Virus record (IMG/VR): IMGVR_UViG_3300025108_000233
Coordinates: 1 to 31,069 of that record
Reading direction: 5' to 3' (one strand)
DNA length: 31,069 nt
DNA from: a virus
Taxonomy: Duplodnaviria; Caudoviricetes
A program made the position numbers and the translations under genes. This document shows, piece after piece, positions 1-4,144 of this stretch (position 1 is its first letter; the number at the start of each line of letters is the position of its first letter). The notes under the pieces were generated by a model. The model searched no databases, was not told the origin of the DNA, and saw only the letters and a list, made by a program, of their open reading frames with translations.

Positions 1-53
1 ATAAATACTTTTGATTACTCTATTTGAGTAATCATGAATATTTATATATTCAA

Positions 54-114
54 TAGGCTAGGGTAGTGCCTAGGTAAAAAGAAGCGAACCTTGTGTTCAA
101 ACCTAAAACTGCCC
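54..114 (+). ncRNA. Structured 5' leader of the first early gene (hairpin/pseudoknot, unknown class)
   Basis: GGGTAGT 61-67 pairs with ACTGCCC 108-114, TAGGT 71-75 with ACCTA 101-105, and GAAC 86-89 with GTTC 95-98. TAGGC 54-58 can alternatively pair with GCCTA 68-72. Confidence 0.4.
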
Positions 115-144
115 AAAAGAATAAACAAACAAAAGGAGCAAAAA

Positions 145-390
145 ATGACTACATTTTATTTAAATACGACTAAAAGCTTAAGAAAAGAGTCCTCATTCGG
201 ATTTAATACTTACTATTCCTATGCAACTCCAGTTGCATTCGAAAGATATGGGAAACTTTTCGTGAGCGAAAACGTTTGGTCCAGAACGACTGGCAAACAC
301 TTAACACAAATTGACGGAGGCGCTAAAAAATCAAGAATTCCTCATGATGAATTTGTTAAAATATACAACGAAGCGAGACAGGTTCTTTAA
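145..390 (+). CDS. Phage early hypothetical protein (81 aa)
   Basis: AAGGAG SD at 133-138 before ATG 145. The YSY.TPVA...WSRTTGKHL pattern is typical of small phage early proteins. The TTG start at 91 is unlikely. Confidence 0.8.
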   Translation: MTTFYLNTTKSLRKESSFGFNTYYSYATPVAFERYGKLFVSENVWSRTTGKHLTQIDGGAKKSRIPHDEFVKIYNEARQVL

Positions 391-494
391 TGTATAGAAA
401 ACCAAAAGCAGAAATTATAGTAGACCGATTTATTATCGGTCTATTTGTTGTAAAAGCAATTTATATTGCTTATTTAATATCAATTGGAGGCTAA
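390..494 (+). CDS. Small hydrophobic peptide (34 aa, MYRKPKAEIIVDRFIIGLFVVKAIYIAYLISIGG)
   Basis: TAATG stop/start overlap with the upstream gene; one predicted TM segment; fills the gap exactly. Confidence 0.55.
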   Translation: MYRKPKAEIIVDRFIIGLFVVKAIYIAYLISIGG

Positions 495-498
495 TAAA

Positions 499-696
499 AT
501 GAGAGTAATATCGAGTAAAAACCCTTTGACTAAGGAAACTTGGGCATTCGTTAAACTATTAAGAGAGGGTCATGATCATGTCAGTAATGGACACGATCAT
601 AAAGTATATCTACAAAAAGACGTTAATGGCGTTGAGCATTTAGTGACTCAAAACAAAGACGGAAAGATCGAGTCAATAGAAAGATTGGAGGACTAA
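499..696 (+). CDS. Hypothetical protein
   Basis: GGAGG 486-490 before ATG 499. Confidence 0.7.
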   Translation: MRVISSKNPLTKETWAFVKLLREGHDHVSNGHDHKVYLQKDVNGVEHLVTQNKDGKIESIERLED

Positions 697-803
697 TGAC
701 AAAAGAACAACAAGAGAAATTTGAGGAAATACAAAATATAATTAATCAACTTGTGTATGACCTTGAAGATTTAAAAAATGATTTAGAAGATAATAAAAAG
801 TAA
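696..803 (+). CDS. Small acidic coiled-coil peptide (35 aa, MTKEQQEKFEEIQ...)
   Basis: GGAGG SD and TAATG overlap; the stop lies immediately before the ribozyme. Confidence 0.65.
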   Translation: MTKEQQEKFEEIQNIINQLVYDLEDLKNDLEDNKK

Positions 804-806
804 TTC

Positions 807-878
807 ACGAAACACGGTCCACGATAAACGGTCCGTGTCTAGGCTCACGAGTTGAAAGAGCCTACTGACGAGTAACTC
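807..878 (+). ncRNA. Hammerhead ribozyme, type II, with pseudoknot
   Basis: GAAA 809-812; stem III ACACGG 812-817/CCGTGT 833-838; cleavage triplet GTC 837-839; stem I TAGGCTC 840-846/GAGCCTA 858-864; CTGACGA 865-871; stem II AC 807-808/GT 872-873; pseudoknot GAGTT 849-853/AACTC 874-878. Confidence 0.93.
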
Positions 879-895
879 AAACAAAGGAGAGCAAA

Positions 896-1102
896 ATGAA
901 TAACAATATATTACAAGTACAAAACAAGGTCGTTTACGGAAATGATCTCGTCTACCCTGTCTGTGACAAAGCAAAAAAGTTCGCTGATCTTTTATGTGTC
1001 AAAACATTTAATGATCATCACATTTGTAAAATCTTAGACTTAGGGTTTAAATTTGAGTTAGTGGTCGACTCAAAATTTCAAAAAATATTAAATAGGGGGT
1101 AA
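896..1102 (+). CDS. Hypothetical protein (paralog of 2824..3012)
   Basis: AAAGGAG SD; YPVC..A..FA.L...T motif shared with 2824..3012. Confidence 0.8.
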   Translation: MNNNILQVQNKVVYGNDLVYPVCDKAKKFADLLCVKTFNDHHICKILDLGFKFELVVDSKFQKILNRG

Positions 1103-1104
1103 CA

Positions 1105-1335
1105 ATGGCAGATCATATAACCAAGCTAACCGACATCTATAATCGTTGGTTAGACCAAGACGAAAATAAAAACGTTGATAAGGGTTCAGCAGACGATGTT
1201 TTATTATTTGATGAGTCCTTGACGACAGACCAAAAAAACTTTTTAGAGCGTTTTTGTGATTTGTGGGAAACTGCACAAGATCATGAATACGAATTAAAAC
1301 TAAACAGAGCATATAAAGAAGAAAGGAGGTTCTAA
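1105..1335 (+). CDS. Hypothetical protein
   Basis: GGGGG SD-like sequence; tight packing with neighbours. Confidence 0.75.
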   Translation: MADHITKLTDIYNRWLDQDENKNVDKGSADDVLLFDESLTTDQKNFLERFCDLWETAQDHEYELKLNRAYKEERRF

Positions 1336-1796
1336 TGGAAATTAGAATTATCGACAAAAATCAAAAGTTGTTACCTAATAAATTGGGTACACATTTTGGA
1401 AGCGTGATTAATTGGTCACGTTCTCGCTCATGGTTTAAGCTTGACGCTTTAACTATTGGTAATGGTGCTACGGTCTATTATTGGTCCGATCGCCATAGTG
1501 GTACGTTAATTGACGTTATCACTAAAAAAAACGGTAGACGCTTTATTGTGGTTCAAATGGACTATGCTAAGCGTACCGATAGTAATGGCTTTTCAGAAAG
1601 CCAGACCTATGAATTTACGCCTAACCCTGAGGGGCGTAAACATTACGCTGAGGTTATCGACATTGAAACCTCAGAAGGTGAAAGAGGGTTTATTCTCGAA
1701 CCTAGAGAATTTAATCCTAAGACGAACCGTTTTTCAAAAGACGGTAATCGTATCACCTTGGGACATCGGTCCGAGTATTGGGACCCTTCGTTCTAA
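1335..1796 (+). CDS. Phage hypothetical protein with C-terminal G.R.EYWDPSF
   Basis: AAAGGAGG SD and TAATG overlap; 153-aa ORF. Confidence 0.85.
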   Translation: MEIRIIDKNQKLLPNKLGTHFGSVINWSRSRSWFKLDALTIGNGATVYYWSDRHSGTLIDVITKKNGRRFIVVQMDYAKRTDSNGFSESQTYEFTPNPEGRKHYAEVIDIETSEGERGFILEPREFNPKTNRFSKDGNRITLGHRSEYWDPSF

Positions 1797-1798
1797 TA

Positions 1799-2105
1799 TA
1801 CATTTTCTAAGACTCCGATTTGGGGTCTTGGACAATGTGTAAATACTAAGCACGATTGAGATTGAATTTGATCCCTCAATCAATAGACGTGTCTATGGTC
1901 CCTTTCATTGTAGTGGATTAGTTTCAGAGGTAGCCTCTAAGTTTTTCATAACCACTTTAAAAAAAACAAACTTAACTAGCAAGGCACGTGGGACTGTCTA
2001 AAGTGAACCAAAAGGATTTCCTAAGTTACAAGGATCATCACCTTGGCTTTCGTTATCAATCTTCACAAGTCCCACTGACCAAAACTTTTTAAAATAGTTG
2101 GTTGA
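1799..2105. ncRNA. Candidate multi-hairpin non-coding RNA (unassigned)
   Basis: No credible ORF. Stems at 1806-1816/1822-1832, 1854-1860/1875-1881, 1883-1888/1891-1896, 1912-1916/1952-1956, 1926-1930/1934-1938, 1988-1995/2068-2075 and 2029-2033/2041-2045. Confidence 0.5.
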
Positions 2106-2154
2106 AAAAAAAATAAAACTAACAATAAAGAGTATAAGAGATTGAAAAAAAAAC

Positions 2155-2184
2155 TTGAATTTTTTTACGATGTCTCGATATAGT
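2155..2184 (+). promoter_or_regulatory. Sigma70-like promoter for the manA-like RNA
   Basis: TTGAAT 2155-2160, 18-nt spacer, TATAGT 2179-2184, with A-tracts upstream. The predicted +1 (~2191) coincides with the first base of the closing stem. Confidence 0.65.
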
Positions 2185-2190
2185 AAGTAA

Positions 2191-2419
2191 GAAATATAGA
2201 AGGACCTGAAACCAAACAAATTGCAATTTGTTTGGAGGCACTCTGACTGAATAACGATTTTAAAACAGAGTCGTAAGGTATAGGGCTCAAGAAGTATGGC
2301 CAAATGGCTGAGGTCTTGAGAAGTAAGTGCGAGTAGAGAGAGATAAACTATCTGTTCCGTCCGAAAGTTGTGGGTAACAGTTCAAACCCCACGAGTACCC
2401 TCAGGTCCTTCTACGTTTC
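2191..2419 (+). ncRNA. Large structured ncRNA, manA-RNA-motif-like
   Basis: Perfect 13-bp closing stem 2197-2209/2401-2413, extendable to 2191/2419. Internal stems 2212-2235, 2241-2245/2266-2270, 2286-2292/2314-2320 and 2370-2374/2388-2392. GACTGAATAA 2245-2254, TAAGG 2274-2278 and TTGTGGGTAA-CAG...CCCAC resemble conserved manA blocks as I recall them. Confidence 0.7.
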
Positions 2420-2436
2420 AAACAAAGGAGGCTATA

Positions 2437-2466
2437 ATGCTGATTATAGTTCTAGACCCATGGTAG
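2437..2466 (+). CDS. Possible 9-aa micro-peptide MLIIVLDPW
   Basis: Strong SD AAAGGAGG 2424-2431 at canonical spacing; the stop lies inside a terminator hairpin. Confidence 0.35.
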   Translation: MLIIVLDPW

Positions 2467-2484
2467 CCCTTAGGGGCTACTTTT
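2463..2484 (+). terminator. Rho-independent terminator
   Basis: GTAGCCC/GGGCTAC stem followed by TTTT. Confidence 0.65.
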
Positions 2485-2493
2485 CATTAAAAT

Positions 2494-2830
2494 AAAAGGA
2501 GAGCAAATGACTAAACAAGACATACATGAACTCGTGTGGAATTATCTTTTTGATAAAGCATACGATGAAGACAAGCTATTTGAAGAGATTGAGTATCTTC
2601 TCAAATCTTTTGATCAATGGTGTGGTTATACTTCTCAAGAAATTTGGGAATATTGGAATGATAATAAAAAAAGATATGAATTCGGAGACGAGTTTATTCC
2701 TTTTTTGATCAATCACATTACGCTTGATAATAAAACTTATGACGTTGACGGTATCAAAATTACACCGACACTCAAAAAACAATTATTTGTTTTTAAAAAT
2801 AAACTAGAAGAAAAGGAGAGCAAATGACTA
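2494..2830 (+). repeat. 20-bp direct repeat AAAAGGAGAGCAAATGACTA (2494-2513, 2811-2830)
   Basis: Two exact copies, each spanning an RBS and start codon, flanking the 2507..2827 gene. Confidence 0.85.
2507..2827 (+). CDS. Hypothetical protein
   Basis: AAGGAG SD; 106 aa. Confidence 0.8.
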   Translation: MTKQDIHELVWNYLFDKAYDEDKLFEEIEYLLKSFDQWCGYTSQEIWEYWNDNKKRYEFGDEFIPFLINHITLDNKTYDVDGIKITPTLKKQLFVFKNKLEEKESK

Positions 2831-3012
2831 GAGAAAAACAAGACCTACTTGTTAAACGCAATTCAGTCGACTCAAAAAGATTTCACCCTTACTGTGCTAG
2901 GGCTGAAACTTTTGCTTTATTAACAAGAAAACTAACCTTAAATGAAGATGAATTAAATTGGATTGGACTTTTAGGTTATAATATTATAATACTAGATAAG
3001 GAGGTAAAATGA
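2824..3012 (+). CDS. Hypothetical protein (paralog of 896..1102)
   Basis: AAGGAG SD; ATGA overlap. Confidence 0.75.
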   Translation: MTREKQDLLVKRNSVDSKRFHPYCARAETFALLTRKLTLNEDELNWIGLLGYNIIILDKEVK

Positions 3013-3932: not shown

Positions 3933-4144
3933 ACGATCAATTAAAAACAGTGGGCATGGTATCAGCTATGTTTGGTATTATGTCTGGAGACGACAGAGAA
4001 GGTAAAGTAAAATATCAAAAAAGATTTTTTGAAACAGTCAATGGAATAAGTTTTCCTGACGATTGGGATAGTTTACCTTTAGAAGAAAAAGAACGTAGAT
4101 TAGAAGAAGTGCAAAAGTTAGCGCTAGAAAAGGAGAAAGAATGA
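3929..4144 (+). CDS. Hypothetical protein
   Basis: ATGA overlap; FPDDWDSLPLEEKERRL motif. Confidence 0.75.
   Translation: MNDQLKTVGMVSAMFGIMSGDDREGKVKYQKRFFETVNGISFPDDWDSLPLEEKERRLEEVQKLALEKEKE

Follow-up and report, generated by a model that had tools for sequence, protein, structure and literature searches.

A type II hammerhead ribozyme and a conserved hairpin as putative interchangeable gene separators in one phage group

Comparison of related viral contigs makes it fairly probable that a type II hammerhead ribozyme and a second conserved structure, hairpin A, are two interchangeable gene separators in one phage group, and that the ribozyme, cutting after C839, would split the putative early polycistron into units that each carry a protective end structure. 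The ribozyme was found in a 31,069-nt stretch of DNA from an uncultured marine phage (the whole stretch analysed, hereafter the window; IMG/VR record IMGVR_UViG_3300025108_000233), where the genes on either side of it are small and without functional annotation (Table 1).

Table 1. Features of the window discussed in the text, with positions counted from its first nucleotide.
Feature	Position	Strand	Remark
Type II hammerhead ribozyme with loop I/3'-tail pseudoknot	807..878	+	predicted cut between C839 and U840
G12-A15.1, stem III (812-817/833-838) and C17	809..839	+	predicted 3'-terminal hairpin of upstream product
Stem I (7 bp) and 11-nt loop	840..864	+	predicted fully paired 5' end of downstream product
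CUGANGA core, G10.1 (pairs C808) and pseudoknot strand 874-878 (pairs 849-853)	865..878	+	covariation
Upstream 35-aa ORF	696..803	+	no family; gene in this slot differs among relatives
Shine-Dalgarno (SD, 884-889) and 68-aa ORF (896-1102)	884..1102	+	no PHROG/Pfam family; widespread in viral contigs
81-aa ORF 145 (phrog_5643, unknown function)	145..390	+	protein anchor for RNA-unbiased junction sampling
Hairpin A, alternative gene separator, candidate RNase III site	2..52	+	covariation, two folds
Element B, a predicted small RNA module with a pseudoknot, lying between hairpin A and the ORF 145 SD	54..116	+	4 distinct variants

Direct reading and a script both recovered every core nucleotide of an intact hammerhead, as a preliminary description of this DNA had claimed (GAAA at 809-812, CUGACGA at 865-871 and C17 at C839; G867 is G5 in standard hammerhead numbering and an apt core-mutant position, as G867A). 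Both likewise returned the helices of that description, a stem I of 7 bp (840-846/858-864), a stem III of 6 bp with A15.1-U16.1 included (beyond which lie a U-U mismatch and two further pairs) and a 5-bp pseudoknot between loop I and the 3' tail. Its 2-bp stem II holds for the window copy, where G872-C808 and U873-A807 both form, but only the first pair is conserved: among 19 distinct copies from related phages G10.1-C11.1 is G-C in all 19, whereas the second pair forms in only 5, so stem II is functionally 1 bp. Stems I and III of the window copy are loop-closed and stem II is open. Core and pairing are retained in the related phages, with the core invariant in 19/19 copies except at N7, all six stem III and all seven stem I positions paired in every copy (five of the seven in stem I vary), and many compensatory changes across the two stems; pseudoknot positions 1-4 are paired in 19/19 copies and position 5 in 18/19, with one compensatory A-U/G-C swap (9 versus 10 copies).

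A three-way-junction descriptor gave a single type II match in the 31-kb window; 100 dinucleotide shuffles of that entire sequence, searched on both strands, gave none. A covariance model trained on 10 sister copies only, all of them with another loop I, found the window copy at 48.7 bits (E about 3e-13) as its sole match in the window, and no other match at E<0.9 was returned across 191 kb of sequence (the window, HTVC023P, HTVC027P, the early region of T7 and four further loci). On every structural feature examined the element is, by its sequence, a type II pseudoknotted hammerhead; active self-cleavage is predicted with high confidence, and the proposed cut after C839 fits both the structure and the covariation. 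A match to a minimal type III descriptor near 4030-4135 (stems 4/2/4-5) lay inside an ORF, was not recovered by the covariance model and was rejected as chance. CACGA was seen three times inside the ribozyme (805-810, 819-824 and 845-850) and occurs 27 and 20 times on the two strands genome-wide; in both hammerhead sub-types the 5' flank recurs within the stem III loop, and these repeats are probably an old local duplication.

The Rfam search suggested in the preliminary description failed to match the window copy, no hammerhead being reported for the window at the gathering score or at E<=10. The gathering score of RF02276 (Hammerhead_II) is 37, which the window copy did not reach and which two of the six reported sister copies exceeded (39.5 and 38.9 bits). 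Since the sister-copy model recovers the window copy, this miss is a gap in the model, not a missing defining feature; the window sub-type has a longer stem III loop and a longer loop I, and Rfam is missing a common marine hammerhead sub-type. Weak Hammerhead_3 matches in relatives spanned the wrong permutation and were discarded.

Both the ribozyme class and the idea that it processes polycistrons are already published. In excerpts, Perreault et al. 2011 (PMC3088659) describe the same architecture, including a 1-bp stem II, report tandem phage hammerheads that cleave in vitro and a pseudoknotted example with a 1-bp stem II at kobs > 1.2/min, and propose phage polycistron processing. The copies studied here share with that class the core, an open stem II of 1-2 bp, hairpin-closed stems I and III, a 4-6-bp pseudoknot and clustering around single phage genes. 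Processing of polycistrons by phage-linked hammerheads is given in an excerpted 2019 review as a suggestion needing more work (PMC6765202). The Pistol-like 'PK hammerhead' of Zhan et al. 2024 has a hammerhead core, chemistry and a pseudoknot tertiary contact in common with the window ribozyme, but its pseudoknot, in the excerpted account, is supplied by an additional stem-loop IV and stands in for helix II (PMC11300833), whereas here G10.1-C11.1 is retained; the pairing of loop I with the 3' tail rules out identity with that form. The ribozyme by itself will not surprise a specialist, and what sets it apart is an unusually clean comparative setting.

The IMG/VR record is a viral fragment, 53% complete. 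The PolA it encodes shares 47-51% identity with the PolA of HTVC023P-type podophages and at most 38% with the other rows listed, its helicase-primase-PolA block has the layout found in those podophages, and by these comparisons the phage is a distant HTVC023P-type relative. HTVC023P and HTVC027P had no shared early protein and no hammerhead by protein comparison and by descriptor or model, and blastn of window 1-3000 and 790-900 against cultured phages gave nothing relevant. A SAR11-like host is plausible; the hosts of some clades are unclear in the excerpted text of PMC9599517, and a host search of genome contigs gave a single 29% match, in an alphaproteobacterial MAG, which was not usable. 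The ribozyme begins 3 nt after a stop codon (801-803) and ends 5 nt before the SD of the gene with its ATG at 896, in agreement with the preliminary description. We call the genes of this region early from position and layout alone; a consensus scan found no early promoter (best 8-9/12), and the polycistron is therefore inferred from gene packing.

Other non-coding structures were seen in the same region. A manA-like RNA at 2198-2413 (+) scored 24 bits against RF01745 (E 0.0014, below the gathering score of 55), lies inside an inverted repeat with sigma70-like matches at 2142-2184, and is kept in relatives at 20-34 bits; from its sequence it looks like a divergent sub-family. According to excerpts, manA was described from marine metagenomes and cyanophages (PMC2864571), and assembly into RNA cages in vitro is described for some manA RNAs (bioRxiv 10.64898/2026.07.01.735769). 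A long non-coding stretch at 1797-2100 (+) holds conserved, reshuffled hairpin blocks with 23 distinct matches in relatives, and terminator-like sites lie at 1926-1938, 2029-2045 and 2462-2481. Contig L227 is identical to the window across 4.4 kb and reaches 3.8 kb further upstream, where a structured leader of ~310 nt (L227:about 2320-2630, about -81 kcal/mol) precedes the first hairpin A; this leader is conserved in L232, L238 and L255 and had no credible Rfam match.

Type II hammerheads are common among viral contigs: a search with the stem III pattern alone, covering a third of the collection, yielded 122 loci, 36 of them with a full type II descriptor match. A hammerhead was present in 17/20 loci picked by protein for an ORF 145 homologue, and in 15/80 loci with an ORF 896 homologue (12 of the 15 being close relatives). 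Five hammerheads occur in each of contigs L153 and L154 and three in L245, and every one of them follows immediately on a stop codon. In L153/L154 one gene or a pair of genes lies between copies, and every gene behind a hammerhead retains a strong SD. None of 25 distinct hammerhead contexts falls within an ORF. An ORF lies upstream in 24 of them, and in 23 of these the hammerhead begins 0-9 nt after the stop; an ATG lies downstream in 21, at a distance of 14-29 nt in 13 and behind 117-281 nt of non-coding sequence in 8. No hammerhead was found within 1.5 kb 3' of the ORF 145 homologue in 5/26 loci, and on this comparison the hammerhead is dispensable. A broken copy was seen at L245:5232-5290, which retains stem III and the 5' half of stem I but has lost the core and the 3' half, and in a distant relative (L317) two descriptor matches, 380 and 940 nt downstream from the ORF 145 homologue, belong to an unrelated type II form with C17 changed to A and no evident pseudoknot.

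Relatives that have no hammerhead at a junction carry hairpin A there instead. Hairpin A is an AU-rich structure of ~20 bp, present up to nine times per contig, which in the window is predicted to adopt two states within about 0.2 kcal/mol of each other: a long stem (2-20/26-44), which contains a U-U mismatch (U11-U35) and a wobble pair (U10-G36), or the upper stem plus a second hairpin (35-41/46-52). In 18 copies hand-picked from 63 distinct ones, 98.8% of cells were paired and 9/18 pairs were compensated, a level reached in 0/500 shuffles; the helix amounts to about two turns, and its G-U wobbles are valid on the + strand. In 31/35 distinct tails the 3' strand folds by itself into a hairpin of 6-8 bp, against 7% in shuffles, and 6 C-G substitutions were seen. 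Hairpin A overlaps the upstream stop codon, and about 70 of 84 copies, counted with a loose pattern that admitted a few false ones, lie 23-38 nt before the next ATG.

Like the intergenic hairpins of T7, hairpin A stands between genes just before an SD and has a 9-bp upper stem. The T7 hairpins before genes 0.3, 0.5, 1, 1.1 and 1.3 have upper stems of about 9-10 bp over an internal loop (NC_001604), and the weak E. coli RNase III consensus, as quoted in the excerpted PMC4357697, was scored along T7 and along hairpin A. On T7 the score peaked at 890, 1468 and 5887, at 13-14/16. These three positions, which the T7 record leaves unannotated, we take to be R0.3, R0.5 and R1.1 among the RNase III processing signals of T7 early mRNA (R0.3-R1.3). 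Against this E. coli consensus, hairpin A reached its highest score in the register of the T7 sites, 13 nt from the loop: the window copy reached 11/16, and the mean over 43 copies was 9.4 against 6.8 in shuffles and 8.4-8.7/16 in three other registers. Hairpin A may share part of the consensus with the T7 sites, in the same register; it differs in its weaker match (9.4 versus 13-14 of 16), in a symmetric U-U mismatch where the T7 sites have a larger internal loop, and in its second conserved fold. A cut in the T7 register (38/39) would destroy the conserved second hairpin, and one at or near the U-U mismatch would leave it at the new 5' end, much as the hammerhead would leave stem I at a 5' end. 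The assignment of hairpin A as an RNase III site is, on these sequence comparisons, suggestive only.

Element B, behind hairpin A, has a hairpin loop that can pair over 7 bp with 108-114 around an inner helix, a pairing kept in four variants. Its stem base is common to the hammerhead stem I, and its loop start and 3' flank are common to the sister hammerheads. It had no Rfam match, and in a by-eye comparison of layouts it fits none of twister, pistol or HDV. There is a very slight chance that hairpin A or element B is an undescribed self-cleaving class.

The exchange of the two separators was sampled at the junctions before the ORF 145 family. Among 41 distinct junctions drawn from 58 loci chosen by protein, 13 hold a hammerhead, 23 hairpin A and 4 neither, 1 was too short, and none (0/41) holds both. 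On a DNA tree of 34 ORF 145-family genes, which excluded duplicates, junctions with neither separator or too short, and two partial genes, the label changes 8 times, close to the mean of 10 obtained on shuffling, and at least 5 of the changes are forced by strong branches; the tree is weak, as the gene has 81 codons and lies in a recombining region. The swap between hammerhead and hairpin A is, on this phylogeny, recurrent. The separators on either side of a 174-aa gene are hammerheads in L154 and hairpin A in L229/L241, and three downstream and two upstream gene families occur with both separators. In 26/26 distinct arrays that contain both, all hairpins precede all hammerheads. The parallel with RNase III processing of T7 early RNA, drawn in the preliminary description, gains from the finding that hammerheads and an RNase III-like hairpin share junctions in relatives. 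The excerpted text of Perreault et al. 2011 (PMC3088659) reports no swap with a non-catalytic hairpin such as is seen here, and exchange between a phage hammerhead and an RNase III hairpin appeared in no title or abstract among the open-access papers listed, which does not imply its absence from print.

In the processing that we propose, self-cleavage after C839 would split the early polycistron so that the upstream piece ends in the stem III hairpin and the downstream piece, already paired at its first base, opens with stem I and the pseudoknot 44 nt before its SD. Because stems III and I are both loop-closed and a single stem II pair joins the two sides, the products should part at once, and their separation would make the cut effectively one-way. 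The ends produced by hammerhead cleavage are a 2',3'-cyclic phosphate and a 5'-OH (PMC6765202, in excerpt), and the hammerhead would differ from T7 RNase III processing in these ends and in needing no protein. Hairpin A would serve the same end by way of an enzyme of the host, RNase III being the likeliest by analogy with T7, and the hammerhead would then be the host-independent version. The likely purpose would be separate ends and a separate half-life for every swappable accessory gene or, in some relatives, for a small structured RNA.

Contigs from RNA libraries are the only expression-related evidence, and they do not support the cleavage reading. An 81-nt contig over 806-881 bridges the predicted site in library X1 at a depth of 373.5, against 290 for the flanking gene, and in library X3 a contig over 806-909 bridges it at a depth of 7.4. 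Uncut sequence is therefore abundant in X1, ambiguously as precursor, opposite strand or carried-over DNA; X1 was made by random PCR and may hold DNA, and contigs lack strand and ends, so that bridging neither shows nor excludes cutting. No contig end fell at 839/840 in six RNA runs and one run of unknown kind, contigs being blind to RNA ends; runs X6 and X7 had no contig over 770-930, and in all 15 RNA-labelled datasets with the sequence its share was small.

The first bases of the 3' product have predicted unpaired probabilities of 0.34, 0.15, 0.07 and 0, and a product paired from its first bases speaks against the unlikely alternative that the cut is a decay signal, in which the 5'-OH would feed RNase J, as in glmS, or the cut would uncouple the upstream genes and shorten their life, damping distal or proximal early genes. 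RNase J1 degrades glmS mRNA from its ribozyme-made 5'-OH end, in the excerpted account of PMC3997798, and since such an end can admit RNase J the cut here could also speed decay; the order of hairpins first and hammerheads last could then be an expression gradient. Conserved helices at the ends of both products, and the strong SD kept after each hammerhead, speak against the decay reading as well.

The repeats could alternatively be mainly DNA recombination anchors for accessory cassettes, with cleavage in cells slow or incidental, a reading that we regard as improbable. It draws on the wide differences in flanking genes among close relatives, on the block order of the arrays, which fits recombination between like repeats, on the contigs that bridge the predicted cut site, and on the precedent of the PeSL cassettes of T4-type phages, which are also intergenic repeats set among exchangeable genes in a hypervariable region (PMC4122927, in excerpt). 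Recombination needs identity and not catalysis, yet the core is invariant and the stems compensate in 19/19 copies; PeSLs are, in the same excerpts (PMC4122927), promoter/terminator cassettes, whereas the hammerhead has no terminator or promoter match. Only 1/24 hammerhead contexts reached 9/12 in a promoter-like match, and 10/12 matches were found in 16/89 hairpin A copies, namely 15 array-first hairpins and one other. Recombination and cleavage are compatible roles.

What follows the ribozyme bears on the rather remote prospect that its main job is the maturation of small non-coding RNAs, in which it would set the 5' end of the structured modules behind it. Window-type copies supply 13 distinct 3' flanks; in 7 of these the first AAGGAGAG is 112-276 nt away, with the gap filled by conserved modules, and 1 has no AAGGAGAG within 324 nt; one module shows compensatory changes in a predicted pseudoknot. 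In the window and four other flanks, however, the SD lies 12-13 nt after the ribozyme with no module, and sister copies almost always lead straight into an SD. A ~105-nt module follows the hammerhead in L129, L133, L154 and L245 (e.g. L154:3880-3985), with a predicted loop/3'-tail pseudoknot, compensatory changes among 7 variants and no Rfam match, and at least five further structured modules occupy the same post-hammerhead slots in other relatives.

Nested folding predicts that SD bases 887-889 are weakly masked by 876-878 to the same degree before and after the cut, a masking that the pseudoknot is predicted to relieve, so that cleavage is no obvious translation switch. A translation-coupled switch, in which a ribosome at the stop 801-803 covers C808 and GAAA and blocks folding so that cutting occurs only if the upstream gene is untranslated, is very improbable: the 0-9 nt stop spacing (23/24), the stop overlap of hairpin A and its two near-equal folds would suit it, but predicted SD access does not change on cutting, genome compaction would be expected to place the ribozyme close to the stop in any case, and ribosomes do not linger after termination.

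Tentatively, and with less confidence than in the protected units themselves, one early transcript may carry a code of two chemistries, in which proximal hairpins are cut by the host to leave a 5'-phosphate, distal hammerheads cut themselves to leave a 5'-OH, the boundary between the two is moved by recombination, and the last hammerhead also frees uncatalogued pseudoknot RNAs. On the purpose of the many hammerheads near phage genes, this clade offers natural matched pairs in which the same gene stands behind either a ribozyme or a candidate RNase III hairpin, repeatedly switched, so that the question of their role can be put to plain swap experiments. If the two-chemistry code is true, it would tune the life of the mRNA for each accessory gene and the dependence of the phage on host RNase III.
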